DNA of 63,095 nt, counting the filler, from Hausera hauseri (Eukaryota): NCBI GenBank assembly GCA_046269625.1. It is 9 parts of 9 records of this genome, joined end to end, with 100 filler letters (N's around TTAATTAATTAA, not from the genome) between each part and the next. Parts side by side here need not be neighbours in the genome. Positions count along the whole stretch, not along the records: positions 47,334 to 63,095 come from JBJURY010388811.1; 8 more parts are not named here. One strand, written 5' to 3'. A program made the position numbers and the translations under genes. Shown one piece after another: positions 26,658 to 63,095 of the stretch (positions are counted from its first letter, which is position 1; each line of letters begins with the position of its first letter). The notes below the pieces were generated by a model that saw only the letters and a program-made list of their open reading frames with translations, was not told the origin of the DNA and did no database searches.

Positions 26658-26679
26658 TCAAATAAGAACACTATTTTAT

Positions 26680-33625: not shown

Positions 33626-33837
33626 ATCGAATGATATTGTTATATTTTTCGAAAAGTTCGATATTCGGTATTCGAGCCAAAAAATGTTCTAATTTCGAAT
33701 ATTCGGCTTGATATTCGAGATCGCCATACTCGACTTCCTATCTGTCCCCGCTAAATGTTGTACCGAATTTTGACTCCTTAGGACCTAAAAAACCTATTGG
33801 AAGTCTGCACCAGTTGCGCTTTGGATCGATATTATTC

Positions 33838-40511: not shown

Positions 40512-40569
40512 GAATGGCACCCTGAGGTGTGTTCTATTTATTTTAATTGCAAAACCTTTTACCATACTA

Positions 40570-41209
40570 ATGAGATTTGCTGTCAATCAGGAGAAACGCA
40601 ACAGTAGGCCCCGGTGGAAATGGTAAAACACACTGTAAACTATTACAAAACTACCGTGGCATATTCCATTCACCATTATTCAATCACATTTACTGGCATC
40701 AGGGTGCTGGTGGTGAGTCCGGTCTGACACCAGGAATTTTGTAAATTAAAATTGATAACATTAATAGATGGGTTTGATGAGAACTGGTTCGGGCGATTAC
40801 GCAACGAAGGCGTTATTGTCATTGATGATTTATTCCAGGAAGCCGCGAAACAAACTGACTTTAATAACCTGTTTATAAAGATTGCACGACACCGTGGTGT
40901 GACTGTTATTTTCATTACGCAAAACAGGTTCCATCAGGGAGGACAGCACTAAACACTAAATTTTACGTGCCCTATTTGGTACTGTTCAAAAATCCCCGTG
41001 GTCAGACTATCATAGATTATATTGCTCGACAAGCATTTCCTCACAACCGGACCTACTTAATCGAGGCCTATTATGATGCTACAATCACGTCACACGGATA
41101 TCTGTTCATTGACTTTACACCACAGTCTCCAGATGACATGCGTGTACAAACAGACATTTTCAATCCGAAAGGTGTGTATGTCTATAAACAAATTCGAAAA
41201 TCGACATGA
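40570..41209 (+). pseudogene. Polinton packaging ATPase (A32/FtsK-like)
   Basis: Walker A GPGGNGKT (40607), Walker B VIVIDD, ARHRGVTVIFITQN, YLVLFKNPR and HGYLFIDF. Confidence 0.9.
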
Positions 41210-41424
41210 CAGTACTGAAAAATGAAGAATTTCCCGAAAAACAATTGTTAAACGTGAACCTACGAAAAAGAAACGTGCATCAACAGCAGCATCAAAACGC
41301 AACGCTACAGTTAAGCAATTAATCAATTCAGTCCTTCGAACAACAGCAGTGAGACGCAAATTACCATCAAAGTGGCAACGATTATAAACAACTACGTCGA
41401 CGCATCAATATGCACTGATGAAAC

Positions 41425-41753
41425 ATGCGTATCGAATGTTGTCAACCGTACTTTATTGCTTTGCTTAAAGCCCTGTCGAGACATAAAGGAATCATGCTAC
41501 AATCATTACCGCAATTTCTAGTGGACGATTTAATGGAAATTTTGTACAATATTGTTGTTCGTCACGTTGACATTGGTAGTGGAAAGCGGAATTTACTAAA
41601 GTATCGAAAACGACTCATTACCTTGTCAACGCTCGTAGTAAATGACTGAAACGATAGGTCATGTACCAGCAAGACGGAGGATTCATTGGTGCAATTCTGC
41701 CTGTTGTCATGTCATTACTGGGTAGTATCATCGGTGGCAAAAGTTTAGTATAG
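41425..41753 (+). pseudogene. Small conserved Polinton protein with a C-terminal GGF-amphipathic tail (gasderminX-like in adintovirus nomenclature)
   Basis: LMEILYNIV..LLKYRKRL, then after a frameshift QQDGGFIGAILPVVMSLLGSII. Confidence 0.55.
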
Positions 41754-41899
41754 TATAAATAATGAATGTAAGTATATTATGTTTGGTAGTATTGGTGCAT
41801 AGTTTTCATCATTTTGTCCCATTTTACCGAATCTTACATTCACTTTGCGTTCAAATTGTTGCAATACAAACAAAAACCACACCGGCAACACCGACAACA

Positions 41900-42935
41900 A
41901 TGGACGTATGGTTCGGTCCACGTCATCCTGTTGGGTACACTGGAGTCACCAAAGTGGCAGAGATTATAGAAAAGAGTCGACGAAAAACCCGACAGTGCCT
42001 CGGGAAACAGTTAGCACACAGCCTGAAGAAAACAATAAAAAAACGGTTTCGAACTCGTGCATACTATGATCCACGCGTAAATAATCTACGGCAAATGGAT
42101 CTAATGGAAATGATTACATACGCTAACATTAACGATGGATATCTGTACGTGCTGACGTATATTAATGTGTTTAGTCGTTTTGCATGTGCAATTGCCGTCA
42201 AATCAAAACCCGGTAAAGAAATTGCCGACGCTGTTCATACATTAATAAAGCAACAACAACAACAACCACGAAAGCATGCAAAAACGGATTTAGGTAAAGA
42301 ATTCTACAACTCCAATGTTGCATCGGTCTTGAACCGGTTCGGTGTAAACCACTACTTTGTGTTTTCTCAATACAAGGCTGCACTCGTTGAACGATTTAAT
42401 CGACCCTGCGCAGTCGCCTAAACAAATTCTTTACTAAGCAAGACAATAAATGCTGAGTAGATATACTGCCGGATACTATCCATGCATACAATCATTTGAC
42501 ACATCATGGAATCAACAGATTACGGCCGGTTTGTGTAACCGGTGATTTGGACATGTGACTATATCCAAACCAAACACGACAAGCAACACTTAAACGTCCA
42601 AAATATAAAATTTGTGATTATGTACGTGTTTCAAACCTAAGTACAACGTCATTCATCAAAAATTTCAGAACTGGAGCGATAAAATTTTTCAAATTTTTGC
42701 AATCAACAGTATAAAATACCTGCCATGTATGTTTTGGATGATGAAACTGGTGAAAAAATACGTGGTAAATTTTACGAAAAGGAATTTGCTGATGCAGGTG
42801 CTGCCTGAGAAACCCGATGTGTATCCTATTCAGGAAATTCTGCGTTCACGCGGCAAAGGTTTGAATAAACAATATCTCGTCAAGTGGCATAGGTACACCA
42901 TACCGAATTGGATATTTACATCACAGATTGAATGA
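41900..42935 (+). pseudogene. Polinton retroviral-like (RVE) integrase with a C-terminal chromodomain
   Basis: QMDLMEM..NDGYLYVLTYINVFSRF, TDLGKEFYN, KAALVERFNR; chromodomain YPIQEILRSR..QYLVKWHRY..NWI. Confidence 0.92.
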
Positions 42936-43997
42936 GCGTTTACTTAGTACTTGACAGTAATAGAACATCACACCATGACAACAACAACAATAGCAATACG
43001 GCTGAACGGTTTATCATGTACTTGGACCAGGCATTAGATTTACGCTAGGGCGCGTGGGAAGCGGCTCTATCAGAATTTACATTTCAATTTTCACCGATAT
43101 CAATACGTGAGAACAGTGGTGTTTACTTTACTCTATTGGAGAAATCGCCTGCTTCAAGTCGTTTGCAGTTAATCCACGACTCTAAGCGAACATTTCATGT
43201 TCGCAATTATAAGCGGCAAAATTTCCCGATTTTTATTTTTTTATTTAAACAATCGTTTGTTTCTAAAACACAGATATCCGATTGAATTGCAATTTAAATC
43301 AATAGCCGATGCTCAGGCATTGGGTTTTCAATCCGCCAATGTGCGCTTGAAAGGTCCGAATCTAGGTGGACATGTCATAGCTAGTGAAAGAAAATTGAAC
43401 TTTTCCAAAAGCATGAAAACCGACATTATGGTAAACTCGCAAATGACAAAATGAACATTTTACTCGTATACTACGGCATACGGTTTACTGTTGGAATCGG
43501 AAACAGAATTGTGTGTATCCATCAGAGAAGTGGCTAAATTGACTCTGAAAACATTTAGATTAAACGCCGATGATCGTATTTCGTTTACATTACATGAAAA
43601 TATTATATATTTTGCCTTCGATGAACTAATGACACGGAATGTGAGCTTTACGAAACCTGAATCCGGTCAAACCGGCGGTGGTCGAGTTATTGTCGCTAAA
43701 TACAAGCCACGACTATATGGAGCATGTCAGCAAATCAACATTTTAACGGATCTGACCGAACTCATATTTGTTGGCGGAAAACGTAAACAACTATTGGTTT
43801 TTATTACACTGGATTCTGACACGTGCAAAACACCCGTCGAAACAGGTCATGTTAATATCATCCGGTTCATGTATTTATTGTTATCTCACAATGTTGTGCA
43901 CAGTATTTCGATGTATATACTAGATGAATTTTGGAAACCCATTAAATTTCTGTTCGGATCTACGACGCATTTGACGCTGCATTTTCGGCGTCAATAA
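42932..43997 (+). pseudogene. Polinton minor capsid (penton)-like protein, copy 1
   Basis: MSVYLVLDSN..NTAERF..LDL.*GAWEAALSEF; C-terminus ILTDLTELIFVGGKRKQLL..ILDEFWKPIKFLFGSTTHLTLHFRRQ. Confidence 0.8.
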
Positions 43998-44051
43998 TAA
44001 ACTGCGTTATCATCATCATCATTACAATCATCAGTGTGAATAAGTCTTTAC

Positions 44052-45060
44052 ATGGTGTTACCGAGTATTAGTTGCCTGACGACTCGACCGAACAATTCAG
44101 CCATTGTAGATTGGGAGAATCCGATAGATTTATCCGGACAGTGGGAGGTTGCACTGACGGAACTTAACTTTCCTTACGCACCTGTGACATTGAAAGGCAA
44201 TATGAAAATACATTACAGCACATCTCATCGGATCACGGCAAATGAACCATGTCAACTACTATTTGAAAATAATAAACTGTGGGCCAGAACCTCTTATATT
44301 GTTACGAGCGACTTTAATAAGAGCATAAAAGAAGACAAAATCCGTGTTATGCTAAAAGATGGAAAAGCACAGTTTTATTACAAAAGTAAAATTTACTGTC
44401 CACGTCAATTCCATTGAAGTGGCGAGAAATTCGGATTCAAAACTACAGAAATCCAAGCTAAAGCATCGTTGCTGATGATGCCATTGCACAAAATGCGTAC
44501 CTAGGAACATATGTGGACATTATTTCTAGTCGACAAAATATATCAACGGTGCATGATACATTGTGAATCTATTGTGAATCTGTAGCTGATCTCGTTCGGC
44601 ATTTTTAGCTAAAAAGTACCAATACATATTTAGAGCTTTAACGTCAGATACAAATGGCTACATCAAGGATGTGGTCAAAATTTCGTTGGGTAAATCTTTG
44701 ACCATGGTATTGGGTTTCGATAAACGGCAGTTTCAACCGAATAAGACACATGTTGCGACACTTAAACCAAAACTGGAAAATGGACTACATCAAATGTACA
44801 TTTACACGAACGTCACCGAACCGATTTTGGTCGGTGGAGTACGTGTACCGCTACTCCGTGCAATCTGTACGGAAAGGAACAGGTACACTGCTGGTGACAA
44901 TGTCATTGTCAAGCTCGATAATCCAATGTTCATATCCCTGGCATCTATATATATAAACAATATTGAAGTTAAGATCAAATGTGATGCAGGCTACTTTATT
45001 GAATTTCAGTACGGTACTACAACAACTCTAACGCTTCATTTATGTCGAAAATATGATTGA
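44052..45060 (+). pseudogene. Polinton minor capsid (penton)-like protein, copy 2
   Basis: MVLPS..PNN..PIDLSGQWEVALTELNFP; C-terminus MYIYTNVTEPILVGGVRVPLLR..IEFQYGTTTTLTLHLCRK. Confidence 0.85.
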
Positions 45061-45352
45061 TTCTCAAATCGTTTCCATTTCCAGTAAACCTCAGCATGGC
45101 GGTAAACTGCCGTATTTTGTCGGCAAAACTATGGTTCTGGGTGGTTGCGTGTTGAAAAGTATTGGAGCCATGGAAGCAAAAACAGCACAGGCTGTGCTAC
45201 AAGAAAACAAATCGATTTTACCATTGTTAAAGGAACACGCCTTGACCGAAATAAAGAGTGCTGCACCGGGAGTTGTTGAAACAGTCAAAAAACAATTCAA
45301 TGGCAATGGCTTGAAAAACAACGTAGAGCATCATAGAGCTTTTCAACTATAA
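45053..45352 (+). CDS. Small Polinton core-like protein between the minor and major capsid genes
   Basis: QHGGKLPYFVG motif, in the position typical of the conserved Polinton QxGG-LP-F protein. Confidence 0.5.
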   Translation: MIDSQIVSISSKPQHGGKLPYFVGKTMVLGGCVLKSIGAMEAKTAQAVLQENKSILPLLKEHALTEIKSAAPGVVETVKKQFNGNGLKNNVEHHRAFQL

Positions 45353-45380
45353 AGAAACGTCGTCGTATGATTTTATTGGA

Positions 45381-46540
45381 ATGGCATCTGCAAAATCTGA
45401 ATTAAGTAAATTTGACAAGGCCGCGCCACTAGTCGTTATTGGCAGTGCAGCATTTGAAAAAATCTATCCCGTTGATTCTGTTTCAATGGACGACAATATT
45501 GACATTCAATTACTCTACGGTTTGCGCTGCAACAGACACTGTAACACCGGCCAATTACCTTTTTCTCACTTTGTTCCAGCAGGCTTCACTGACTCTAAAC
45601 AATGTTAAAATTGAAGGCAACACCAGTCTATATAGTATCAAAGCTCTCGCTGAAACGGTGTCGAATTACATTACAGTGACGAAAACGTCTCATTTGACGA
45701 AAACCATCGGAAACAATGCTACAGCAGCAAATCGTCAGGCATGGATGGCAGAATCAAAAGCATTTACCATATGTGGACCGCTGTACTTTGACTTTTTCGA
45801 TCAGACAAAATACCTACTGCCTGGTGTTAAAGCCATGATTCAACTCAAACGCTGCGACAAGGTTTTCTGCTTGAAAGCTACAGTTGAAAATCTTAAGCCC
45901 ATAATGAAAATTACCGAGGCACGATTATACGTTCGTCGTTTAAAAGTAAAACCATCTGTGCTCATGTGACGTCGATTGGGTTTGGAAACGCAAAATGCCT
46001 GTTTTCCATTACAACAGACCGAACTCGTGTTTTACACCATACCCAAAGGTTCGACATCGTTCTATAAGGACGCGCTGTTTGGCGACATGCGATTGCCGAA
46101 ATTTGTGCATGTTACATTTCAAATGACTACTCAACAAACAGGCAGTTATACCACTGAGTCAGAAACGTTTACCCATAGCAATGTGAATGACATCAGTTTG
46201 GGCAAGAATGCAGATTTCATTGAGTCATCTGAGCAAAATTTCGAGACTGATAATAATGTTTGCACATATATGCAATCTATCGTGATAAAAATGGGTTTGC
46301 TGAACAAAAATATCAACAATGGAATATCTATGGATTTGTTCAAATCCGCCTATCCGTTCTTTACATTTGTCCTGGCTCCAGATTATGACGTTAAGCAGTC
46401 ACAACTACCTCAACAAGGAAATCTGAGGTTAGAGGTTCACATTTCGAAAGCGGTAGAAGAGTCTACCGTAATGTATATTACGGCGTATCTGATGCCGAGG
46501 TGAAAATAACGAAAAATAGAACCGTCATTGTACGAATAAA
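45381..46540 (+). pseudogene. Polinton major capsid protein (double jelly roll, PY)
   Basis: KSELSKF..EKIYP, PANYLFLTLFQQASLTLN, GPLYFDFFDQTKYLLPGV..LKR, EARLYVRR, RLPKFV and QQGNLRLEV; frameshifted, with a stop. Confidence 0.88.
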
Positions 46541-46595
46541 ATCGTATATCTCTCTTTTTCTTAGTACAACGAAGTAATTTATAATTATTGTTGTT

Positions 46596-46969
46596 ATGCT
46601 TCAATCATATTTTACGTTTAGCTCCACTGAGCTGCCTCACTATGGAAAACTGCTCTTGGGTGCAAAATTTCGCGTTGTGTTTTCACCGAACTGTGTGCCG
46701 CGTGACTTACGACAAACTGATGGTGGTGGTTTCATTGTCAATACACAAACGTCGTCATTACTTGGAGAATATTGGATTGCGTGCATCCGACCGCCGTCAG
46801 AGTATTTGACTCGCTCGGATTTTATTATCCCTCATCGTTAGTTTCTCACATTGAAAGACAATCATGTCATCATCGTGTTGAATATAATCGACTTCATTAT
46901 CAATATCCATTGACTGTATTATGTGGACATTACTATTTACTGTGGCTTATGTTACAAAAACTTACATAA
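46596..46969 (+). pseudogene. Polinton adenain-like cysteine protease
   Basis: FIVNT..GEYWIA (the catalytic His of GxHW is now Tyr), FDSLG and YQ..LCGHY. Confidence 0.8.
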
Positions 46970-47233
46970 ATTTGAAATATATTATTTCGTTATTTCACTT
47001 CGGAGTTTTTGTTAAATTTTTTTACAAATATTAGATTCTATTATTGTACTATTTACAACATTTCTCGCGACTCATTAGATTGTATCACTTATTTGATGAT
47101 GGTAGACCTTTACCACTGTAATGTGAAGCATTCTTGTGATGAGACTTATCGGATTTAATTGTTGTTGTTGTTGCTGCTGTTGTTATACAATAGAATAAAA
47201 TTTGATTTCTACACGTTTCGTTCGGATTTAAAA

Positions 47234-47333
47234 NNNNNNNNNNNNNNNNNNNNNNNNNNNNNNNNNNNNNNNNNNNNTTAATTAATTAANNNNNNNNNNN
47301 NNNNNNNNNNNNNNNNNNNNNNNNNNNNNNNNN
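47234..47333. other. Artificial contig spacer
   Basis: N44-TTAATTAATTAA-N44. Confidence 0.98.
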
Positions 47334-47598
47334 TCATATTTTCTGATAATTTCGCATAATCTCGAAATATGGTGTGTGGTCTTTGTTGATTAGAAATAGT
47401 TAAGATTAGATTTAACTTCAAATGAGGTGTTGGGGTTATTTGTGCCAATAAACATAGTTTATACATTGGTAATATACATCGGAATTTATTCTTAAATAAT
47501 GTAGTGCCCATTATGATTGTAAAAATATTGATAATTATAAGTAGAGCCTTCTCATGGCTCGTTGGAGTATACTTATTATTTTTTATTAATAAGGCATT

Positions 47599-50500
47599 TC
47601 ATGACCATATTGGATCCATTTGATTCTTTGGGTAATTCATTTGTGGAAGTGGCTGTCTAATATGATCGGTTGCTAATTTTCTTCCGGTCTCTGGGAATTT
47701 CACTGTCGATTGTACCAATACATTCGTCATACATAGCGCTAATATACGTGAAAATAATACCGCTTTACTGAGTTTTGGTTTCATGCCCTAATAGTTTATC
47801 GAAACAACTTTGATACTGCGTTGGTTATCCGGTTTGGTAGAATTTTCATTTGTAATGGGCTCTTGTTTTGGTGTGGGATTTGAAATATTTGGTTCAGTAG
47901 AGTTTTTATCTGTAGCAGATTCGTCTTTTGAGATGGACTTTGAAATGAGTTGACTTAGTTTACTAATATTTTTATCTATTTTTTATCAAGATTCCTTGTC
48001 TCTGACGGGACCTATAAATTTATTTTTCTCTTTCTTTAAATGTTGACTTATATCGGTAATTTGTTTATGTATTTTTGTTAGATATTTTAAACAAGGCATT
48101 GTAGTTACTGGAATTTCTTCCTCTGGCAGATCTATTAAATAATCTGTTAAATAACCTCCTTCGTTCTGTAACAGAACAACGTGGGTCAATCTTAAATAAG
48201 CGGTGATTCTGCTGGTCCATGTGATGTAAATTACTCCATTAGGGTTGGCTCAATATTTTTGAGCAAGTACATCTAATCTTGCATCATGTAACTGTACTGA
48301 TCGGTGGTAGATTTCTATGGTATTTAATTGTGTTATTCTAATTATTTTTTTGTCAGTTACTTTTATTCCTTTAGGTTGGTCTAGTTTCCTATTGAAACTA
48401 TGAAGGAGAATTTGGATCATATATTGTCTGATCTCTTCCGTATTGAAATCAGGTGCTAAGACAATGTTATTAATATGGAAATGATCTACCATTTGTCGTA
48501 ATAGATTTTGTTGTTCATATTCTTTAAGGTAATAAAAGTGATCCAATTAATCGTCCTTTCTGGTATATTATTATGGTTCAAACCTAGTTCCAATACAACT
48601 TAGTATATCCATCTGTTGATCTCTGGGGTTGGTTCTGATATCGTGTCTAGGCATTTACGCAGAAGTTTTGTCATAGAAACTTTTCTATCGGTAATTTTTG
48701 TTGACGGTAGTTGCATATTTTGTGATTTGTTTGTACAAAATTTTTAATTGGGATCTTCTTCTGTGATCATTCCTCTTTAGATTAAAATATCTGAATAATT
48801 ATCCGCACATCTTCTCATCATCTCATAGTAATGAAAATCATAATGTGACATGGGATTATAGCATCGGTATTTTTCCATGTCAAATAAATAATTTAGTGTA
48901 ACCTGTTTTTCTTTTGAGATTTCGAGGTTTTCTTCTTCTATACAATGGATAAACTTCCTTTGCCATTCTCTTTTTATAGTTTGTTCTCTTTCTAATTCAC
49001 TAAAATAATGTAGTACGTAAGGATCGTGTTTCGATGATTTATGAATTCGAGTTGGAGTTCTATTAAAGGTTAATGGAAAATCTTTGTTGACTTTATCCGA
49101 AGGTCGATTGAAACCTTTATTGTAGTCGCTATTTATCGTTTGTATCAACGTATTATAACGAGCACATCTCGAATAACCTTGAAATTCTAATTTATTGAAG
49201 TTTTGTTGAAGGCTATTAAACATGAATGCATTCGTACATATTGTTGAATGGTTGGTTTATATATTTTTACATGACGTAATAACCGGATAGTCCAAATTTT
49301 ATCTTTATATTCTTCTTTATTATAACCACGTCTCATGGCCCATCTAGTAATTTTCGTATCATAATACTTGCATATTCGTATTCTATAAATTGTCTCGAAG
49401 GATTGTCCTTTTTCGTAAATTTCTTTTCCCATTGGTAAATATGGGGTGACAATTTGGGTTGGTTCGGGCATTATGCACATACCTACTCTTTGCTCTCATC
49501 CATTCTCTGTCAAGGTGTATGATTCCTGATGCTATCTTATCTTCTAAGTATTAATCGTATAGCATTTCGACTTCATCTCGTAATTCTTCTAGCACTTTAA
49601 GCTTTAATTTTACCAACGTTTTGTAATATTCGGTTTTCTCGATTACATCTCTAAAGGGTTTTAACTAGTTCCTTTGTGAGGGATTCGTCTTCAATCCGGC
49701 TTCCCATAGTAACAGGTCTATCCATATGTGTTTTTTATACTCTTTTGGGTCATTTTTTACATTTTGCATTTTTCGCGTCCAAAGTCCGTTAATTACGTGG
49801 TCAGTGCCACAATCCTATACTAAGTCGTTGAGTATTTCCATGTCCTGTGTTGAAATTTCCGATTGTTTGGGTTTATGCAAAGCTATATTAAGCAGTTGGT
49901 AAACAAATGTATTCCACGTGGTAAATGATGTAAAAACGCCTGCATGTAAATTGAGAGGATTGGTTTTCATATACTGCTGAGCCTCTAAGGCGTAGGCATC
50001 GCCTTGTGCGAAGTATTGCCTATCAACGTTAAAAACGTTTGTTTTTAAATAGTGATAATCTGGAGATTGTCGTTTATCTGGGAATCTAGTAATTTCCCAT
50101 AAGAATAAACGCATTCAGGTCTGCCTATAACTCATTTCTATGTCTGGTACTATTGATATTTCTCTAGCTGGTTTTATTTTAGTGCTGTCGGTTTTCTGAT
50201 CTTGTATGTACTGTTGGCGAAGGGTGTGTATGATTTCATTTAGGTTTTGATGTGGATATTGTTCCTTTAGCGTAGTAATTTCTCGTTCAATGTTCAAATT
50301 TTGGTTTAATGGTTTGTTTAACCTTCGTAGAAAATACGTTATTTCATGTACTTCTATTGATCGGTCAACATCATTCTTCTTGTAGTGTTTAAATCTTTTT
50401 ATTATCGATGATATATTTCTGTATGATGAGTTATCCCAAGTGTTTCCTTTTGCTATTTCATTATTTCTTATTGCAGCGCATGATTTTAACAGTAATAATT

Positions 50501-50890
50501 TATCTTCTGCTGGCATTTCCTCCTAGGTTTTACCAAATTCCATTAGTATGGTGTCTATGACTGGTTTAAATGTATTGTTTCCCGAAATAATATATCGATC
50601 TATTGCTATTCGATTGAGTTCCATTTGAACTTCTTTGTTATCTATCCAAGGTAAGTAGTCGAATTCAATTCTTGGCCATGTACGAGTTTTAGCAGTTTCC
50701 TTTATTGGAACAGTCGATGGTTCCTTTAATGATTGTTGTGTACAAGAATTTTTTGACTATAGGTTCTAGGTTATTTCTACTTTGGGTATATTGTAGTTTT
50801 GAATGACCCTTGGGGCTAATATTGTAGGAATGGCGCCTAAAAACGCTTCTCTATTTGCTCGTTTTTTCTTTTCCCATGCTGTCTTTTGAA
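47599..50890 (-). pseudogene. Distal part of the 3' extension, unknown helical protein(s)
   Basis: ORF fragments 50115-50516, 49815-50114, 49187-49480, 48777-49223, 48250-48546, 47986-48189 and 47599-47784; no recognisable motif. Confidence 0.55.
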
Positions 50891-51868
50891 TCAAATTAAT
50901 TCTTTTAATTGCTCGACGACATATATTGCTAATACATGTGATATGAATTTCACATATTTTAAATAATCTTGTTTACTTGAACTGACTGGTTGTGCAGCAC
51001 AGTTTCCGATTAAACAGCATATTACCCGGGTAGATAGAAGTAATGGATTTAGTATACCGTAGTTTCCTTGGTCTTCTTCGTAATTAGGAGGAGGTAATTG
51101 TTTGGTTGTCCTTTGATAGTATCTTACTACTTTGCAACATATATAAAATGCTACTACTATTAATGCTACTACAGTGCTACTGGCTAAACCAATTATAAAC
51201 ATTAGCAATAAAAATGATTTGTAATCAACAACTGGTAAGGTAAGGATGACTGTATATTCATAATGGATTGCTTCAGTTGAAGTTACATTAAGTGCTGACA
51301 AGGCAATACGTATTGCTCTTCGTTTGTAAATGCATGGTGACTTGCCTGAAACATCTTCATACTTTGAAGGTGGTTTTTCATTTGCTGTTTCTACGTCCAG
51401 CATTAATTGCTCTCTTCTTACTTCTCTCCGTATTTTATAAGACCTTTTGATTAATATGGCGATATAACTAATTAATGCAAGGACGAATGATATTGGTAGC
51501 ATTAGTGATATTATGTCCATCGTTTGATTGTGTGCATATGCTTCTTTGTTGCATGTCCTGGCTTTAACTATGGGTATTAAGCTGCTTCCTTTCATAAATC
51601 CATTGATTGTTGGTAATATGTCTCGTCTAGTGAAATTGAATCGCTTATATCGCTTGACTTTCTTGTTGAAGAATATTATCCCTCCTATTATGAGACTAAC
51701 TAAGAGTGTCAATATTACTGCAGAAATAATGTATTCTAGTATGGATATTGAAGGGAATATTGGTTTGTTTGCTGGTACTGTTATGTTGGTAGTCGTTTTT
51801 GCGTTAGCTTTCTTAATTAGTAATGATGGTATAAGTATTGGTGCTGTTAGAGTAAAAGGTTTAGTCAT
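50891..51868 (-). CDS. Multi-pass segment with repeated signal-peptide/AxA/TM units and a PPxY motif
   Basis: ..LLIKKANA-KTT..TM-KK; ..IPIVKA-RT..TM-KR..PPSKYE; ..VTSTEA-IH..TM..PPPNYEE; ..LIGNCAA-QP.. Confidence 0.65.
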   Translation of the reverse strand: MTKPFTLTAPILIPSLLIKKANAKTTTNITVPANKPIFPSISILEYIISAVILTLLVSLIIGGIIFFNKKVKRYKRFNFTRRDILPTINGFMKGSSLIPIVKARTCNKEAYAHNQTMDIISLMLPISFVLALISYIAILIKRSYKIRREVRREQLMLDVETANEKPPSKYEDVSGKSPCIYKRRAIRIALSALNVTSTEAIHYEYTVILTLPVVDYKSFLLLMFIIGLASSTVVALIVVAFYICCKVVRYYQRTTKQLPPPNYEEDQGNYGILNPLLLSTRVICCLIGNCAAQPVSSSKQDYLKYVKFISHVLAIYVVEQLKELI

Positions 51869-51877
51869 AAATTTTAT

Positions 51878-53026
51878 CTAATCATTGATTCTGTCTCGTT
51901 CAATTGACTTTCTTTGCGCTATTATTCTTTTCCTTTCTAATTTAAAGTTTTCGGCTTTTTCATTTGGTATGAGTAGTAAACAAAAAATTAAACGGTATCG
52001 AATAGTATTTATTCGGCCAGATAATCCTTCTGCGTATACATTACAAAATGAGTATATATCTTGGTAATCCTGTTTAGAGAGTTCTTGATTTAATTTTCGT
52101 TTTAAATATTTATTCAATAAAATTTTAATTTCTTTTTCTTCTATCACTTGTAATGCTTCTTCATCGAGTTTGTCTTTTAACGCTATGATTGAATAAGCTG
52201 TGATATATTGTGTATAAATATCACCTTTACACTGTTGTCTTAGCTCTAATCCGAACCATTCATACAAGGTTAGATGGTAATTGATTACACTATACATTTC
52301 ATGGTCATCAACGTAATATTTTATGCCAGGTAATTCGTTTTTGATTTCTCTTTTAATGTGACTGACTGGCAAAGGGGCTCTATCACCTCGAAGAAATCTT
52401 GTCAAAAATGTCCGTTCAGCTTTACGTCCTATAAATAAGGGTTCATAGTCCATGCTTGATCCGATTATAAGTGACTCATCAGAATTAAAATCATGGCTTA
52501 TATTTAATAAGTCGACTGATCTTATTTTTTCCAACAATTGCGGTATAGTTGATAGTTGTAACTTATGCATAATTAACAGTTCGTGTTTTTTATTTCCAAA
52601 GTGTATAGATTTTATTCCGCATCTATAATTCCATGCCTTGGCTAATTCATGCATAGGGCTATACCATGAAAGCTTTAAACCAGATACATTCATAATTTTA
52701 TCAAATATTATTAATCCTGAGTTATAGTTGGTTCGTTCGTTTTCGTAACGTTGTCTAAATGATCTACCTTCGTGCAGTGTATCCTTAGAAAGTTGGCATT
52801 GGAAGCTGGTGATTAATAGTAAGTTATCTCTCACGAGATGAGTGGTAGGATTATATCTTGATTCTTTCTGGTATTGTTCGAAATATTTCTTGTACGTGTC
52901 GAGATATGAGGTTATAGGTTCTCTTCTAATGTGACTGGGTGTCTCCCATAAACGATTTGCGTATTGAATACTTTGATAGATAGTTGTGTTATTTCTTCGA
53001 CAGACTTGTATTCCATTCTGGTACAT
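51878..53026 (-). CDS. Unknown protein containing repeat-domain copy A
   Basis: 382-aa ORF; YEPLFIG..ERTFLTRFLRG..FGLEL..AYSIIALKDKL..KILLNKYL..GLSGRINTIRYRLIFC. Confidence 0.7.
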   Translation of the reverse strand: MYQNGIQVCRRNNTTIYQSIQYANRLWETPSHIRREPITSYLDTYKKYFEQYQKESRYNPTTHLVRDNLLLITSFQCQLSKDTLHEGRSFRQRYENERTNYNSGLIIFDKIMNVSGLKLSWYSPMHELAKAWNYRCGIKSIHFGNKKHELLIMHKLQLSTIPQLLEKIRSVDLLNISHDFNSDESLIIGSSMDYEPLFIGRKAERTFLTRFLRGDRAPLPVSHIKREIKNELPGIKYYVDDHEMYSVINYHLTLYEWFGLELRQQCKGDIYTQYITAYSIIALKDKLDEEALQVIEEKEIKILLNKYLKRKLNQELSKQDYQDIYSFCNVYAEGLSGRINTIRYRLIFCLLLIPNEKAENFKLERKRIIAQRKSIERDRIND

Positions 53027-53618
53027 TAATAGTGCAGCTCTTTTGGTTGAATCAGATTGTTTAATTTCCCTTTACAATTACAAATGAGTTACATAAGCTT
53101 GTCTGAGATCGTTAATCATCATCCTTTTGTCGGGGTTTTGTTCGAGTATTGCTACTGGGTTTCTGTTGTTTAATGGTAATTTGGCCAAACGGTTGGCTAC
53201 TGTATATAGCTCATATTCTTCAGTTGATAATTCATGACGGTCTTTGCGAAGCTTGTTTATGTCGCGAAGTATTGAAATTATTTTGTTGGTAGTTAAATAT
53301 GGATGTTCGGCTATTGATCCTACTCCTTGTTCTATCAATGTTATGATTATTTGCGTTTCCTCTGAGAGTACGTCAAATGGGGAATAAATTTTTTCCTTTG
53401 TGTAATTAATAATTTTTTCATTCTGTGATATTAGCTGTATATAATGGCGATTTAGCCTGGGCTCCTTCGCATAAGTCTCTAAGTTTAGTTGGACTGGGCT
53501 ATCTAATTTTAACCATTCTGTTGTTTAATCAAAATTCTTAATAAAGATTTGACTTTCTAGTTTATCTTCTTGTAGTCTTTTTCTTTCATAACGCTCTACT
53601 TGTTGAGATAGTGATAAG

Positions 53619-55359
53619 TGTGATGCCCACCGCGGCCGGTGCCCTTCGGCCCATTTTGGTTGGGCAAGGCCGGGCGTCCGATATAGCCGCGTCCGATCCA
53701 TAGTCGGGCCCGATCTTCCGCCTCGAGAATTTCGCCCGCTGAACTTTCAAGCGATATTCAAAATATTTTATTTTCAGTTATTTAATGCCACCGATTTGTT
53801 TGTTTGGTTAGAAATGGAACATTACTTCCAATGATTTCGTGTTTATTTCCATATTTGAAAGTCCCACGTACTCTGGGATAGTTTTGTTGTTAATAGCTTA
53901 TCCTACACCGAATTATGTTTGGCCTACATGCAACGTATCGTCGGTTGCTTTGATTTGCCAAATCACATCATTCTCGGTTTTCTTCCAAAATGTCTTTCTG
54001 TCAGTTGCATTAGTTGTATGTAGCAGTCCTGGCACTATTATGGACGACCGTAAACGATCTGCTGTTCTGTGCACTATTTACGTTAAATTGACATTTCATC
54101 CGACTGAATTCAATTTTTGTCATAAAGAATTAGTGCTCGTCAAACAAATGCACATCCATTCAATTATCAAATACGACAAACGACAAAAACAAAAATGTTG
54201 ATACATACCGAACACAACTAGAAAAGAAACTGCATAAAAATGCTTTCACCGATGCCGTTACTTTCGTTGAAGCAAAACCGGAGTCAAACGTCTCTATTTA
54301 GCTGCCTGATTAATTGCTTTTAATATTCTATATCTCATGGTTGGATACCATGCAGCATTTCTTGCTATTTTCATTGGTTTTGTTTACCCGTCTTATTGTA
54401 GTGCCAAAGCAATTGAAACAAAAGACGGTGCCACAAAACGGCTGACGTATTGGGTTGTTTACGCTACGTTCAGTCTTATAAAATTCTTTACGGACATTTT
54501 CCTGTTTTGGATTCCGTTTTATGCCTTATTGAAATGTATATTCCTTATTTATTGCATGGCAACAACAAATTGGAACGGTTCAGTTGCAATTTACTATGGA
54601 ATCATTCGACCGTTCATTCTTAGTCATGAAAAGAAAATTGATTCGGAAATTTCACACACTGCACGAGTCGTTGCAGATTCTGCTGAAGAAGCCTAGAGAT
54701 CATCCAACGAGTACAAAACGGAATAATCAAATATAGTGTTCTATTTATTTACAAACAGATAATAATGTAATAAACGGACAAAATTTTGACTCCCACTTGT
54801 CCAATTTTGTGTTCTAACGCTTGTTATTTTTTGATTATTTAAAATTAGTTTGTACTTGAATTACTTAACATTTATTGTTTTGATTTATCGTAATAAAGTC
54901 TGGCTTTACATCCAAACTATATATGTGGTCTGTAATTTCATTTAATCACCGTGTATTCCCTTTTAAGCTGCATGTGTGTATGATTATTAGAAGGTCATTG
55001 GCAAAAAAGAAAAAATTAAATTATGGAGTTTGCTTTTCAATTTAAATCTTATTTCTCCATTTTAAAAAAAATTTGTTTTCAAAGTTCATTGTGTGATCAT
55101 ATTTCGATTGTTACCAGGATCTTACGTATTCGACTCATTACGTGCCAAGTTAAAAAATAACGGAAATTTTGGATTATTTATTCTGTTATCAAATTCTACT
55201 AATCCCAATATTTTTAGTGATTGAATTCAAAATAAAAAGGACGGTTCTAATCGCGACAAATTTGTTCGGAGCTAGGTTATACACCTAATTTACTTTTCGT
55301 GGAGAAAAGAACAAGGCAACATCTGGATTTCGCTTATTCAATTAATATTATAAATAACA
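53619..55359. mobile_element. 1741-bp TGT...ACA insertion (solo-LTR-like) with 5-bp TSD ATAAG
   Basis: ATAAG at 53614-53618 and 55360-55364. Excision restores the open minus-strand frame ..QNTVPNPY|LSLSQQVERYERK.. Confidence 0.75.
54190..54696 (+). pseudogene. REEP5: Intronless REEP5/DP1/Yop1 (TB2/DP1-HVA22 family) copy
   Basis: LEKKLH.KNAFTD..GVKRLYL..IGFVYPSYCSAKAIETK..LTYWVVYATFS..LFWIPFYALLKCIFLIYCMA..NGS..IY..IIRPF; frameshifts and a stop in the N-terminus. Confidence 0.88.
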
Positions 55360-56119
55360 ATAAGTATGGGTTTGGTACGGTGTTTTGGGATTCACTTCAC
55401 CCTATTCGCCTGAAGCAATATTCGCTCGTGGGATGAATATTTTCTTTATTTCTCTCGGGTAATAGAGACTTATTAATTGATATTTCTTTTATCGTTGCCA
55501 ATGTTTGACGTTTCATATATTTCAGTTTGATAGTTGGAACTTATGTTATGGTATGTCCTTCAGTTAGGATAATCTCTTCGTCCTTACTACTATTTGATTG
55601 TTTAAATTTCTTCATGAGAAACATTAAATTTACTAGGATCAGTAATAATAACCATATAGATGAGATTTCTTGCTTAGTACCAATTGTCGTAAATGCGGCT
55701 TCAGCCGTTCCGAATAATATGAATGGTATAAAAAGTAATATTAATGTTGAGTAAGTAAACCCGTTAATAATTTTGCCAGAGTGACTTTCGTCTAGCGTTA
55801 ATAGGATGTCCGTATTACTTTCCTTGTTGATATATGAATCCTTCTGCTATATTTGCTGTGTTATGTTGATAGTTTCAGATTTATCCTGATTGATATTACT
55901 ATTGTCCATTGTCTGGTTTTTATGATTGTTGGTTTCCGTTACTACAAATGGGTTATGATCGTCATTTCTTTTTATGTCGTTACAGTTATTATCGCTATGT
56001 AGTGTATCTTCTTGTTCTTCCAATTTGGATAATTCTTCGTTACAGTGTATGGGTAGTATGTGTTTCTCAAAGGTATTCAATCGTCGTATATTTTTTGTCA
56101 ATTGTGGTGCCGTTTCTTT

Positions 56120-57631
56120 TTCATTATCTGGTTTTAGTCGGCAGACATTTATTAACCTTTCCGTTCTTCTTTAAATGGTTTATCTATTTCTTTGTCGTCG
56201 TTTAATTCGCAAAATATTAGATTGTAGCGTATGTCATTTAATTTGCCTGAAAATCCACTTGCATTCACGATGTCGAATTTATCTACATCTTCGTAATCAG
56301 AAGGGGTCAGTGGTGTTTTTTCTTCTCAATTCAGATAATTATTCCATAATATTCGTGCTTCTTCTTCATAAGCATCTATTTCATCCTGAGTAAGTTCGTC
56401 TTTTATCGCCATAAGTGTGTATGTCAACCAACAATTGATCATAAAGGAGTCTGTTTGGACCTTATTTATTAACTCTTCGCCGTAATTTTTAAATAGTCCC
56501 AGACATCTATCGACCAGTTTGGCAATTTTTTTTTGGAAGTTTATTTGCTATTAGTTCAGGGAAATTCTTTAAAGGAGATTCATTAAATACGCTGCGGGAA
56601 ATAATAATGGTATTCCTTTTAAGAAGCTAGTAATCAGCACACGTTCTCTACGGCTTCCGACGAATAAAGGTTGATATTTAGTTTTGTCTCCATACACTAT
56701 GCTTTCTTCGTGGGTTAGTCGGTATTTTTCTATTAATGGGTCGAACGACCAAAGGCAACGTATTATTTGTAATGTAGATTGGGTCTCTAGTCGAGTTTTT
56801 AACAGTGATTCATGTTTTGGACATATGGGTTTGTTGATTGGTGTCCCCATTACATCATCCCAAGTTTCTATCATTATATTGGTAGGTTGTAACCATATGG
56901 GTTGTAGGGATATTTCCATTAAAATTTGTTGAAGCAAGTAAAATCCCTCGTAGTATACCTTAGTTCGAAAATCATTCGATGTGTAGGGTAATGACGTATT
57001 GGTTGAAATTTTATAAGACGTATACAGGATGCTAGCTATCTGTAGCAATTGGTATTTATAATCCGATTCTTTAAAGTTTATTCCTGTTTCTTGTTTTATC
57101 CGATCGAAATATGGTTCATATAGGACTATATAATTTTATGAAGTCTTTCTGTTCCTCGTTGGGTAATTAATCTATACTACCTCCTAACAATAGACAATTA
57201 ATAATGTCTCTGTCCCATTCATGGGGAGTCTCTCCGAATATACAAAGTGTGGTAGTATGCTGGTCATCGTGAAGCATGGTGACGGGTTGGTCATCTTTTG
57301 GTTCGATGTCGTTTAGCCATTGTTCGGTTCCATTTGCTATAGGGTGTAACTTTATTGTGGTGTTCAAAATATATCGGTCGTGCGGATATATTTCCATTGA
57401 ATGGGTGACGAGATGCCGTATTGGTTGATATACTAACCTATGTATTACTCGGTCTAATTCCTCTATGACTGACGAGAGACTGCTTGGATTTGTTCTTAGA
57501 GTGTTTATTACCCTAGAGTAAGGAATTATCTCGTTGGCCATGGCATAATTGTAGTCACGTAGAGGATCTATTATGTTTGCTACGGTTGCTAGAATTGTGC
57601 TAGTTTCGGGTGTCATCATTACTGACGTCAT
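56120..57631 (-). pseudogene. Unknown protein containing repeat-domain copy B
   Basis: YQPLFVG..ERVLITSFLKG, then after a frameshift RCLGLFKNYGEEL..NCWLTYTLMAIKDEL..EARILWNNYL..GFSGKLNDIRYNLIFC. Confidence 0.7.
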
Positions 57632-58135
57632 GTTAAGATCCTCTTGTATTGTTTCTGTTTAATCTGATCCAAGTAATTGTCCAGTTCTATATGGTTTATA
57701 TTCGCTTCCGCTCTTGTTTAGTCCATCCATGGCGTCTTGTATGGGTTTATGTAATTATTTCCATTCTTTAGTATTAGTATAGTCTTTTGGAATATCTCTT
57801 TGGGACAGTAATATTTTTGTTTCTTTGTAGGGGGTTGATGTTTTAATTCGATATTTCTTCTATCTTTGTATTGATTTGGATATGATACCCTCTTTTCTTT
57901 ATGAGAGGAACAGTCGTGATGTACTTTTCCTTTCTGATATTCTCTTACTATTTGTATTAGACTAAAATAATTGTCATCATGTTTTACTTGTTGGTGATAT
58001 GGTTCTTCAAATGATTGTCCGTCGAGTGAAGAGTTCGGCTAGACCTTTTTGGTTACATGACCTAATATTCCATTTGTCAGTTATGTGTGTCCTATTAGGT
58101 GTCTTTGAATATTTAACATGGCGGAAGCTATATAC

Positions 58136-59883
58136 TAGGGCGAGTTGTATTTATGTTCCAAAATGGTTTTGATATAAATTAGATCTTTACGTTCTATCTT
58201 GAAAAGTTCTGCTATCTCTTGATCGTCGTCCAACATGCAAATTAGTAGTCTGTAACGCAGAGAATTTAGATTACCAGACAATCCTCCGACGTTTACTTGT
58301 TCCAATCGACTAATTCTTTTGTTATCTTTTCTAGTTAAAAGAGTGTCTCTATCTCTACGTAGATAGTCATTTTATAGTATTCGGGCTTCTTCCTTTTCCA
58401 TCTCCTCTATTTCTTCTTCTCTTAGTTCGTCCTTTAAAGTCATTAGCGTATATGTTAACCAACAATTGACTGTAAACGAATTCTTTATTTTCTGGTTTAT
58501 TAATTCTCCGCCAAAATTCTTGAATAGTCCGATGCATCTTACTCCTGCTTCATCGGCTCTTTTTTGGGATATATAGGCATCGCATAATGGGGATGTCTCT
58601 TGCAATAAGGTAAGTATACTTACAATAGGGATTTATGATATCTCTTATCTTAATAAATGAGTAAAAAAGATTCGTTGTTGTGGGCTTTCAATAAATAGGG
58701 TTTTATACCTCATTACATCTCCGTCAAGGGAACAATTCAATGTCAATGTCTTCTTAATGTAAGCATTTTTATCATCGCACGTCAGCCCGCTATTTTTCCA
58801 GTTCCAATCAAAAGTATGGACGCGATGTATCAATTCTGATAAGGTGTGTGTGCTGTGGTTTAGATTTGACATTAATTGTGTTTCGCAGATTTCCTTTAGA
58901 GTCTGTGCTAATTCTCGATAGTCTGAGTGTTCTTCTGTCGGTTGGTTAATGTAAAGGGATTCCAGTGATTTTCCTGCATTATTTTCGGGGAATTCGTTTG
59001 TTATGCAATCTGAGATGTTAAGTGTTTTAGGTTCTCTTTTATTGGGATGTCCATTCCAACTAAATGTTGGGATGCGTATTATCTTCCAGGATCCATTTGT
59101 TTTATCTTTATCACTAAAGAATTTACCTAACATTAGCAACGAGAGTAACCACAATAATACTGAGGTCCATGTGGGACTCAGGTGTTGTGATGTAGTCTCA
59201 GCTGCGTTTGCTATATTGATCATAAATAGAAAACATATTCCCATGAAAAGTAACGTTCCCAATGGGAACGTAGAATAACCCTTTATTCCTGAAGATTCTC
59301 GTTTTTTATCCTTTTCTTGAAGGGGTTGGATATGCATGGCTCTTGTCTCGTTAGAGATTTTATCCATATATTTAATTCTGTTTCCTGCAAATTGTAGTTA
59401 ATCAATTTTCATCTACTGTTTTGGAGGGAGATAGCTATCTAAGGGTTGTTCCATTTTTCTATTCCAAGCTCGTTTTACTTCTTCTACTTCATTAATGATT
59501 TCTCGACCTCCTATATTTAGATTATGGTGTTTATAAATTTTTAACACCCGGCTGGCTGCCACATAATAATGGTGTTGTGATTTTCTTGTACTGGCTAAGT
59601 CGGGAATTGTATAATATACCTCTTCACAACTTATGTTTATTAGAAGTTTATCCAGTGGGGACAATGTATTGGAATCCAATTTCGGATCTTCGCAAATTAG
59701 TTTCATTACGGGCCTATATTGTTCGTCTGTTATCCCGCACTTTTCGTGATATTTACCGAGAAAATCGCTTAATTCCATTACACTATTTATGGGTCTCTTG
59801 ACTAGTTGCAGTGCGTGATTAATAGGCTCTGAATTGGCTAGCAGAAAATTTTCCAATCGGTGTCGGTTTGCAGCCTCTCTCAT
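58136..59883 (-). pseudogene. Unknown protein: TM pair plus repeat-domain copy C
   Basis: One frame with isolated stops: ..MINIANA-AETT..TM..YKTLFIE..QRIFFTHLLR*..RCIGLFKNFGGEL..NCWLTYTLMTLKDEL..EARIL*NDYL..GLSGNLNSLRYRLLIC. Confidence 0.7.
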
Positions 59884-60572
59884 TAAAGGGAGTGGTGGTA
59901 GATTTTTCCCTTTTGTTGAGGTAATTCGAGGTAATTTTGTTCAAATAATTTGACTTTTTTGCATTGTACTCGCCCACCGCGGTCCGATCTCATTGTTCTA
60001 ATTTTGTTATTTATTAGTGGTTTATTGATTTCATCAGGCTGGTATTTTTTAATTTTTTCTTTTAGGAGTCTAATATTTTCTTCTGCCTCTTGTAATTTTT
60101 CATTTATAGTGCTATAACGTGCAGGTGTTTGGAATTTATTTGTGATTTGCAATTCTATCAAGTCGGGATAAATGGAAGTTGTTGATACTGGTCTTGGTAA
60201 GTCTTGTAAAGAATTTCGTAATGGTTTCTTCGGAATACTCGTTATGATAGATACTGAATAGGTGGCCATTTTGGTTATTGAGGGTAAGGGCACTTGTCTT
60301 CTTCTATGGTCATTCGAAGAGAGATTAACTGCTTCCTCCTCGTCGCTTGTCATATTACTTTGAAACACATAATATACATATATCAACAATAGTACAACTG
60401 CACTACTCCAAGAGTTAGTCGTGGTAGTGACTGAGGTTGGTTGGGCGTTCGCGCATCCAAATATAATGAGTAATATTAAGGTTATCAAGGTTATGGTAGA
60501 CAAATTAAAAGGATTTCCGAAGATGATTGTGGGGGTATTGGTTGAAGGTGTTTCTATTATTCGAATTTGCAT
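59883..60572 (-). CDS. Signal-peptide/TM pair followed by a coiled coil
   Basis: FNLSTITLITLILLIIFGCANA-QPTS..SSAVVLLLIYVYYVFQSN..EEE, then INEKLQEAEENIRLLKEKIKK. Confidence 0.6.
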   Translation of the reverse strand: MQIRIIETPSTNTPTIIFGNPFNLSTITLITLILLIIFGCANAQPTSVTTTTNSWSSAVVLLLIYVYYVFQSNMTSDEEEAVNLSSNDHRRRQVPLPSITKMATYSVSIITSIPKKPLRNSLQDLPRPVSTTSIYPDLIELQITNKFQTPARYSTINEKLQEAEENIRLLKEKIKKYQPDEINKPLINNKIRTMRSDRGGRVQCKKVKLFEQNYLELPQQKGKIYHHSL

Positions 60573-60602
60573 TATTCTTTGAGCTAGTGGGGATTCTGTA
60601 TT

Positions 60603-61100
60603 CTATTCAGTCGTTTGCTTTAATGTAACATAATATAATGAGGGTGGAACAGTCTCTTCCCCTGGTGCGAACCACCACTGATCATTAGTCTGAGGATTTG
60701 TATCTTGGTATCCTTCGCAATTGAATACAATTGATCTTCCAATGACTTTGAGTACTGCTCCTATCAGTTTGGGTAGTACATCTAAACCAATAATAAGATC
60801 AGAATACGACTCTTGTGGGTTGGCGTAGCAAGTAACATCAATATATCCTATGGTTAAATCTAATTTTCCGCACGCATCGGGTATATAATGAGTAATTCGT
60901 CTATATAATCGTAAATTTATGCGGGTCAATGTGGTAGTGATATCGAGTTCCGCATTAACATACTTACCGTATACTTTGACTAATATTGGTGTTAAGAGAG
61001 GGTAATCGTTATAGCTTTGAAGATAATGCATATTATATAATAATTCTAACCCTTTTATTTCGTCATCTAATTCGTTTACGTTTTTCGGTACTTCTCCCAA
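60603..61100 (-). CDS. Degenerate retropepsin-like domain 2
   Basis: ILVKVYGKYVNAELDITTTLTRI (cf. ALLDTGA)..GKLDLTIG..SDLIIGLDVL. Confidence 0.6.
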   Translation of the reverse strand: MGEVPKNVNELDDEIKGLELLYNMHYLQSYNDYPLLTPILVKVYGKYVNAELDITTTLTRINLRLYRRITHYIPDACGKLDLTIGYIDVTCYANPQESYSDLIIGLDVLPKLIGAVLKVIGRSIVFNCEGYQDTNPQTNDQWWFAPGEETVPPSLYYVTLKQTTE

Positions 61101-61109
61101 TCTTTCTTT

Positions 61110-61470
61110 TTTTCCAGTGAGTTTGTAGCTACGTCTATCACGATATCATAATATATTGGCGTATCTCTACCTATGATACAAGGGATTGTAGTATTTTGTA
61201 GTATGTGATACAGGATCTTTGATCGTTTACTTTTCAATTTAGTTAGGCAGTGACTACGCCTATTACTTTTAAATGGTTTCCGTTTATTAGCTTGTGATTT
61301 ATTTCGCTGCTTTCGATTAGTTTCAATTTCAGAGTTTCCATCGTAGTTTTGTTTAAATAATTTTTTGCGGTTCCTTTATCTACTCTTGCTTCTATTTCAC
61401 CTTTATTTATGGTTATCGTTGTGGTTACAGTATTATTTGATCCACCGCCTATGAATGTAATCGTCGTATT
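61110..61470 (-). pseudogene. Retropepsin-like domain 1, directly after the integrase (not in the ORF track)
   Basis: ITINKGEIEARVDKGTAKNYL..INGNHLKVIG; after a frameshift YHILQNTTIPCIIGRD..DIVIDVATNSL. Confidence 0.7.
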
Positions 61471-62614
61471 CTTGTCTTAAACTGCATTCTGCTCCTTAAT
61501 GGGTATTTACACGATGGTGTTTGTTCCAATTTACATTCTTTGGATGTTGGTCTACATCGTTGCGCACTTATCCAAGAAGTTTTATTAGGGTTGGATAGAT
61601 TCTGTAGTTCTAAACTTGATTCAGTTATTTGTAGTATTTTGTATGGTCCTTTGTAAGGTAATTTTAGTTTAGGGCTTTTGCCTGGTTTACAGGTCTCATC
61701 CAATATGTTGACTAGATCTCCAATTCGATATATATATATATGGGGTTTTGCCTTTTTATCATATTGATGTTTATAATTTCTTGGTGGTATTTAATTTTTA
61801 ATCCGGCTCTGATCCATGCTTCTTGTAATCTTTCTTGTAGAATTGTTACATAATCCGGTTTCTCCATCATTTGTGATTGTGGCTGTCTATATTTTAAATC
61901 AATTGGCACAATATCTCGTCTACCATACAGTAAAAAGAATGGTAATTCTCAAGTTGTTGTATGGAGACTTTGTCGGTAGGCATATACACAAGTTTTTATA
62001 TACAAATCCCAATCAGCTGGATGGTCATATGGGTAGCTAGATATCATAATTGAAAATTGTTTATTAAAGGCTTCCACTGGGCCATTGGCTTGAGTATAAG
62101 GTGAGATAAGTTTGTGATTAACTCCTAATATTGTTAGTACTTTTTCCATAAGTTCGCTGCAAAAGGTGCTTCCTCTATTGGATATCACTGTCATTGGCAC
62201 TTAATATTCAAATATTACGTCATCGACTAATCTTCTGGGCATAAAATCCGTGGTTCGATTTACTATTGGCATTACTATTGGAAATTTTGAGTGGTAATCT
62301 ATTGCTGTAAGTACACATGTATTTCCTCTGGCGGTGGTTGGTAATGGACCCACTATGTCAACACCTATACAAACAAATGGTGATGCTAAAACTGATACCG
62401 GTTTTAGTGGTGTTTTTCTTGCTTGGATATTTCCTCTTCTTTGTGAACATACGTGACAATTTTTACACCAATCATTCACGACATCTGCTATCTTTGGCCA
62501 ATAATACTTTTGCTTAAGTCTGCCTAGTGTAGCTTTATAACCTCGGTGTCCGCCGAGTTGTCCGTCATGGTAGTGTAGTAAAAGTTTTATGCGAATGTGT
62601 TTTGGTACAACCAT
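61449..62614 (-). pseudogene. Gypsy-type integrase (H2C2, core, GPY/F)
   Basis: HDGQLGGHRG..YYWP..CHVC; PFVCIGVDIVGPLP..IDYHSKF; SNRGSTF; QANGPVEAFN; KLKLPYKGPY; YPLRSR. Confidence 0.93.
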
Positions 62615-63095
62615 GAGTAAATCTTAGCTCTCTTCATAGTAGATATTTCCTCTATCCATTTTATATTTATTTTTGCTCCCTTATTTATTTTGGCTATTAT
62701 GAATTTTCCAAATTTCTTTGTCCTTTGCTTGTTCTTTGGCTATAGCTTCGTGCGTAATTGGTATTGTCAGGACTGTGTGCATCTCTTCGCTGACCTCCGC
62801 ATTATCTACTTCATCTATCATAGCTTGAATTAGGTCAGTCATTTTGTAATATTCGTATAGAATGTCTTCAACGAACGGATCTTTGTGGTCACTTTGTTTT
62901 GTGTTTCTTTGGTTATCTTTGTTCAATGTTTGAATAATTATACTTATTAACTGATCTGTATCCGTAGTGTGCTTTTTTCGTATTGTCTTAGGTACGTCCG
63001 GATTAAGTTTCTGTGAATAATATTCTTTTAAGTCGTGCATGTCATCGTATTCGGGATTAACTCAGTCATTATAGTTTTTGTCAATGTCATTTTCT

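Follow-up and report, generated by a model that had tools for sequence, protein, structure and literature searches.

Three copies of an orphan domain behind a Ty3/Gypsy-type integrase in a probable giant LTR retrotransposon of Hausera hauseri

A giant Gypsy-type element of Hausera hauseri carries, on the coding strand behind its integrase, three diverged copies of an orphan protein domain. The triplicated domain had been recognised in an initial annotation of this DNA, and its setting has proved more unusual than that first reading suggested: copies A and B belong to a larger repeat unit of about 570 aa, three hairpins related to one another in sequence lie on the same strand, and a secondary insertion splits copy A from its hairpin. 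The element is probably a giant Gypsy-like LTR retrotransposon, and on balance we favour a reading in which the three copies are paralogous accessory domains of a polyprotein tail that would be cut by host signal peptidase.

The window, by which we mean the whole stretch of DNA that was analysed (63,095 nucleotides), is eukaryotic and rich in mobile elements, and its BIR/RING, Gypsy and Polinton-like content suggests an invertebrate animal as host. Its nine contigs are separated at eight places, for example 47234-47333, by artificial spacers of 100 bases (N44-TTAATTAATTAA-N44), and sequences on the two sides of a spacer are therefore unlinked. The region described here is the last contig, 47334 to 63095, which exits the window at 63095 and ends at 47334, with both ends of the element, and any RT, RNase H, Gag and LTRs, lying beyond it. 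Its features follow in minus-strand order from 63095.

61460..62623, minus strand: Ty3/Gypsy-type integrase with H2C2 zinc finger, core and GPY/F-type motif (Pfam, PDB, GPY/F by eye)
61170..61425, minus strand: retropepsin-like piece behind the integrase, with a degenerate active-site motif
60726..60995, minus strand: possible second retropepsin-like piece, more degenerate (motif by eye)
60360..60530, minus strand: membrane hairpin 1 (two hydrophobic helices, the first followed by AxA and an S/T-rich spacer)
59413..60300, minus strand: unit D, which follows hairpin 1 for about 300 aa and has no detectable core
59100..59286, minus strand: membrane hairpin 2
58153..58722, minus strand: core copy C (tblastn, alignment A2, shuffles)
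56689..57787, minus strand: upstream and N-terminal regions of unit B, homologous to those of A
56158..56688, minus strand: core copy B (tblastn, alignment A2, shuffles)
55595..55780, minus strand: membrane hairpin 3, anchoring unit A at its N terminus
53619..55359, no strand assigned: secondary insertion, solo-LTR-like
54310..54696, plus strand: intronless REEP/DP1/Yop1 (TB2/DP1/HVA22) fragment within the insertion
52463..53596, minus strand: upstream and N-terminal regions of unit A
51920..52462, minus strand: core copy A (tblastn, alignment A2, shuffles)
50891..51877, minus strand: TM-rich stretch, in frame behind A
47337..50890, minus strand: decayed coding sequence without an assigned family, about 1,190 codons to the contig end (frame path)

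Copy A lies inside a stop-free ORF (51878-53071). In tblastn the 397-aa product of this ORF, P0001, recovers both other copies, B with 27% identity over 328 aa (E=4e-33) and C with 33% over 189 aa (E=3e-24); beyond these two, the best match in the window has E=0.47. Identity between the cores is 57/171 (33%) for A and B, 61/181 (34%) for A and C and 77/174 (44%) for B and C, with z-scores of 35, 38 and 66 respectively, and in no pair did any of 1000 shuffles reach the observed score. The three-core alignment, A2, has 42 invariant columns and holds every motif quoted in the initial annotation, whose claim of three diverged homologous copies stands. Past purifying selection, which it had also proposed, is borne out. 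Core pairs are identical at 0.40-0.63, 0.60-0.68 and 0.40-0.44 of first, second and third codon positions; by the Nei-Gojobori method dN is 0.44-0.76 and dS 1.4-1.9, the latter unreliable with silent sites near saturation, giving dN/dS of about 0.23-0.5, below one in all three pairs. Second codon positions being the best kept and dN/dS below one, the cores diverged while still coding. Copies B and C had been described as visible only through stops and frameshifts; stops are indeed present (four in B, three in C), but each core aligns in one frame, and a possible short local frameshift in B (near 56570-56530) scores 15 against 14, which is not significant.

Ahead of the cores, A and B have about 390 aa in common, as had been noticed from shorter matches (upstream regions, z=8.4 and 0/300 shuffles; N-terminal regions, z=10.5 and 0/1000); a frameshift at about 57130 parts the upstream portion of B from the remainder. 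The repeat unit of A and B comes to about 570 aa, against the 200 aa or so first given. These regions also have a counterpart outside this stretch in P0002, an unbroken natural protein of 622 aa and the sole database relative among 2,586 candidates, which matches unit A with 42% identity over 361 aa (E=1e-78) and unit B by tblastn at E=2e-18. Hairpin, upstream and N regions stand in one chain in P0002, which stops before the core, and in the searches made the core has no relative outside this stretch. Unit B lacks a hairpin. The suggestion that ORF 59413-59883, in unit D, is a fourth partial copy found no support: ORF 59413-59940 gave z<=1.5 against each of the six segments compared, and profiles A2 and A5, run over all six frames of the window, found no further core copies, their next matches being at E=5.2 and 1.4.

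Everything from the integrase to the contig end lies on one coding strand. A frame-path model, its codon model trained on the very ORFs to which it was applied, places about 4,630 codons on a single minus-strand path with 40 stops and 12 frame changes, about 4,000-4,100 of these codons, decayed, lying behind the integrase. The copy seen here is dead. The 1,741-bp insertion is the sole non-coding break in the path, with no other non-coding spacers; AT skew is alike on its two flanks (-0.24 and -0.22) and is -0.09 inside it. With the insertion subtracted the element is at least 14 kb long. Directly behind copy A there is a stop at 51878, past which the reading frame continues into the TM-rich stretch, 328 aa without stops. 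Hydropathy and flanking residues give it three strong TM segments with a K/R cluster after each; its similarity to hairpins 1-3 is not significant save for one piece (z 3.3-4.1), and no Pfam family scores above cut-off. The decayed sequence that follows has no Pfam match, and 48549-50795, read in a single frame, has no PDB match. Near the contig end, at 47600-47800 on the minus strand, is a hydrophobic, signal-like segment that could mark the start of another secreted or Env-like product, truncated where the assembled contig stops.

The element is a dispersed, multi-copy repeat family. Of the contigs of run X1, 25,162 map to the stretch, 20,209 being less than 95% alike, and together they reach all 30 of 30 bins; depth, which is not copy number, falls to 18-34 within the insertion alone. 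X1, the one public run found to contain the stretch, is perhaps the window's own source. Among the contigs listed, the longest pieces measure about 700 nt and none covers the whole stretch, which leaves the association of integrase with cores in other copies indirect. The other copies also differ in length from this one at 11 distinct places (drawn from the 12 entries listed out of 47), six of which fall within 75 nt of a switch in the frame path (random mean 1.5, P=0.0013) and five away from the switches. Length differences at the switches are expected if the switches are lesions of this copy and the others are single-frame. One X1 contig joins core C to core B (56297 / 58363), roughly in register and at depth 6, which may reflect a copy with a single core there or cross-mapping of paralogues that are 70% identical in DNA.

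From this broken copy we infer that active copies probably encode a single long polyprotein. The best surviving alternative, to which we give a small but appreciable chance, is a set of separate accessory genes, co-directional behind pol and similar to ORF3, expressed from spliced or subgenomic messages, with the hairpins as N-terminal signal peptides or anchors. Every hairpin could begin a protein, the stop at 51878 falls right behind A, and rotifer LTR elements, in the sections of the source at hand, usually have their extra ORFs behind pol as separate units (PMC5408684). However, the frame runs on across that stop, the coding path has no non-coding spacers apart from the insertion, P0002 is open for about 140 aa ahead of its hairpin, and the length differences of other copies coincide with the frame switches.

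The insertion has TG..CA ends and a 5-bp target duplication (ATAAG). It splits unit A from hairpin 3, with the flanks in the same frame, and X1 contigs bridge the site from 53616 to 55366. The REEP/DP1/Yop1 fragment within it, from an ER-shaping gene, matches Pfam PF03134 at E=4.9e-22. In run X1 the first 550 bp or so of the insertion are deep and the REEP part is shallow, a pattern as for a captured host retrocopy.

Other contigs of the window hold further mobile sequence. A separate contig, 40512-47233 (plus strand), encodes an rve integrase (Pfam E=1.6e-11), and the ORFs on either side of it resemble, by eye, a packaging ATPase and capsid proteins; we take the whole to be probably a decayed Polinton/adintovirus-like element. 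At 26103-27471 (minus strand) short ORFs encoding BIR and RING domains are clustered. Further RING-like sequence occurs near 28200, and there is an inverted repeat of 690 bp (28434-29125 / 29518-30211, 85%); the cluster is possibly IAP-like cargo belonging to some other mobile element or a virus. Gag-protease fragments, with CCHC knuckles by eye and Pfam retropepsin matches, lie on separate contigs at 31499-35495 (minus) and 20300-22087 (plus); the coding strand of the former is A-rich much as that of the giant element is, a likeness of composition.

The integrase places the element among known types. It matches Integrase_H2C2 (E=3.6e-19) and rve (E=3.7e-7) in Pfam, its best PDB match is the Ty3-G Gag-Pol (E=2.5e-15), and it combines H2C2, DDE core and GPY/F, the combination by which Ty3/Gypsy LTR retrotransposons are recognised. 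In this copy stops and, near 61790, a frameshift interrupt it, and its catalytic triad is damaged, the position of the second Asp being Asn by eye. Behind it, at 61170..61425, the first retropepsin-like piece scores z=7.2 (0/1000 shuffles) against one of two retropepsins elsewhere in the window and z=2.8 against the other; Pfam gives no match, and PDB sequences yield just an unrelated demethylase (E=0.005). The possible second piece is weak (best z=2.0, 47/1000 shuffles). A position 3' of the integrase is unusual for such pieces, whether there are one or two.

An integrase-bearing DNA transposon, a very large Ginger1 relative or some other, with the cores as C-terminal cargo, would accommodate the absence of RNase H from at least 100 aa ahead of the integrase; some 160 codons before H2C2 the window comes to its end. 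Ginger1 transposases likewise have a Gypsy-like integrase with H2C2, DDE and GPY/F and C-terminal extra domains, but in the available text of their description these elements are 2.6-7 kb long, with a YPYY motif, OTU, Ulp1 or PHD domains, TIRs and a 4-bp CCGG/CCGT target duplication (PMC2836005). The element here is at least 14 kb with its ends beyond the contig, OTU, Ulp1 and PHD have no Pfam match in its minus-strand frames (X at stops), the Y-P half of YPYY is absent by eye, and a retropepsin-like piece is present, all of which makes a DNA transposon improbable.

The membrane hairpins, that of P0002 included, share one layout: a hydrophobic helix ending in AxA or TxA, an S/T-rich spacer of 12-15 residues and a second hydrophobic helix. 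By sequence comparison the three are homologous to one another, with z of 5.9-9.6 in five of the six pairs formed with P0002, scores which shuffling exaggerates for segments as hydrophobic as these. Hairpin 1 gives z 6.8-6.9 against hairpins 2 and 3 and P0002 (0/500 shuffles), hairpin 2 gives 5.9-6.8 against hairpins 1 and 3 and 0.3 against P0002, the remaining pair, and hairpin 3 gives 9.6 against the hairpin of P0002, which also finds it by tblastn at E=2e-7. A profile of the four found no further match better than E=0.11 in the whole window. In P0002 and in hairpins 2 and 3 the second helix is followed by K/R residues; in hairpin 1, which has no core behind it, no K/R cluster stands right after that helix.

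Two established rules give predictions here, the -3,-1 rule for cleavage by signal peptidase and the positive-inside rule for orientation. By the former, signal peptidase would cut after AxA, leaving a lumenal stub of 12-15 residues and a stop-transfer helix; by the latter, the cores and large helical regions are predicted to lie on the cytosolic side. Whether the tail is processed by signal peptidase at all we regard as an even question on these motifs. An Env fusion glycoprotein (F-type or gB-type) was considered and rejected: the paired helices are 12-15 residues apart with no long Cys-bridged ectodomain between them, Cys is 1-2.5% and RxKR absent in the units of A, B (N and core) and C, and there are no Pfam or PDB matches. 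The cores have 3-4 Cys each and no RxKR site, which argues against an Env ectodomain.

Processing of multi-pass polyproteins by signal peptidase is typical of RNA viruses, and the tail might instead be a block captured from a virus with a flavi-like polyprotein, its cores being viral non-structural or envelope-related proteins. The Burro elements discussed below do carry an in-frame Env, going by the accessible part of their description (PMC6431247). Such capture is nonetheless unlikely: BFVD (searched with a weak model), viral contigs and 1.84 billion cluster representatives gave no match, the Pfam scan of the contig found no RdRp, helicase or fusion-protein family, and no long Cys-rich ectodomain separates signal helix from TM helix.

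The core itself matches no known family, as first stated, in Pfam, PHROGs, NCBIfam or PDB sequences, nor has it a match among the 1.84 billion cluster representatives; the ESM Atlas and four contig scans, viral contigs included, were also blank. The searched collections are mostly microbial and animal repeat proteins are therefore thinly covered in them. Its helical character, as first proposed, rests solely on AlphaFold models of 3-row and 5-row alignments, which are all-helical and unreliable (pLDDT 42.9 and 40.9); fold searches with both were uninformative, that of BFVD giving no match at E<=0.001. Two patterns in the core recall known modules, which we take as resemblance only: LxxIxxxL...R-x-x-L with a spacing of about 63 residues recalls a DED, and F-x-x-(F/Y)-G-x-E-L recalls a BH3 motif. 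That the core is a remote death-fold (DED-like) or Bcl-2-like module acting against host apoptosis is quite unlikely: neither fold had a match in Pfam or PDB at E<=10 with the full core or its C-terminal 100 aa, in searches whose HMMER filters drop weak matches, nor appeared among the fold-search matches listed, from poor models, even if Burro cargo, in the part of the paper available, includes BIR and BCL2-like domains thought to interfere with host apoptosis (PMC6431247).

Returning to the polyprotein tail cut by signal peptidase, the part behind the integrase would be passed through the ER membrane, where cleavage would yield products tethered to it, carrying unit D, core C with unit B, and unit A respectively. 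A and B would stem from duplication of an ancestral module of hairpin, upstream region, N region and core, and C from a later duplication that took in the core of B, this order being proposed because B and C are the closest pair. The weakest step concerns the role of the core, for which we tentatively suggest a membrane-anchored helical scaffold for protein interactions, not an envelope; such a scaffold would tie particle assembly, or interference with a host pathway, to the ER.

Among known systems the closest in scale are Burro and GYPSM1, giant Gypsy-like LTR retrotransposons of planarians with polyproteins of 4,873 and 5,140 aa, whose extra domains are recognisable (MATH, BIR, ankyrin, BCL2-like and an Env between gag and pol), as far as the consulted sections of the source go (PMC6431247). 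Burro shares with the present element its Gypsy type and, given the putative single ORF here, would also share a polyprotein of several thousand residues with accessory domains in frame with the enzymes; in contrast, the extension here follows the integrase and has no recognisable family, a triplicated domain and membrane hairpins. MATH, BIR, ankyrin and BCL2-like domains are absent by Pfam from the part seen, the gag-pol region lying beyond the window. The element also resembles Ty3/Gypsy elements with an ORF3 behind pol, namely the env of errantiviruses and the ORF3s of rotifer Vesta, Juno and TelKA, in that the env position holds additional coding sequence with TM segments. In the excerpts available, however, these are separate ORFs of about 210-600 aa, or an Env with signal peptide, ectodomain and TM (PMC5408684, PMC13524379), whereas here some 4,100 codons are apparently in frame and 12-15 residues separate the paired helices. 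No such element was found in open-access full text; Repbase, Dfam and most subscription papers were outside the search, as were supplements, whose element libraries could hold this family, and an earlier description is possible.

A bolder reading, which we hold to be possible though rather doubtful, is of an undescribed giant Gypsy lineage whose Pol is extended by more than 4,000 residues past the integrase and cut, as a multi-pass polyprotein, by host signal peptidase in the manner of RNA viruses. It would yield paralogous ER-anchored proteins, each with a new helical domain that may build a membrane compartment for particle assembly or disarm a host pathway.

Giant LTR elements with polyproteins of several thousand residues are described, in the parts of the literature available, from planarians, with recognisable cargo and an Env before pol (PMC6431247). 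A second architecture, in which a triplicated orphan domain and recurring membrane hairpins lie behind the integrase, would widen the known coding range of retroelements and would add a new protein family with three paralogues kept under selection. It would also open a simple question, that of the processing of a retrotransposon polyprotein by signal peptidase.
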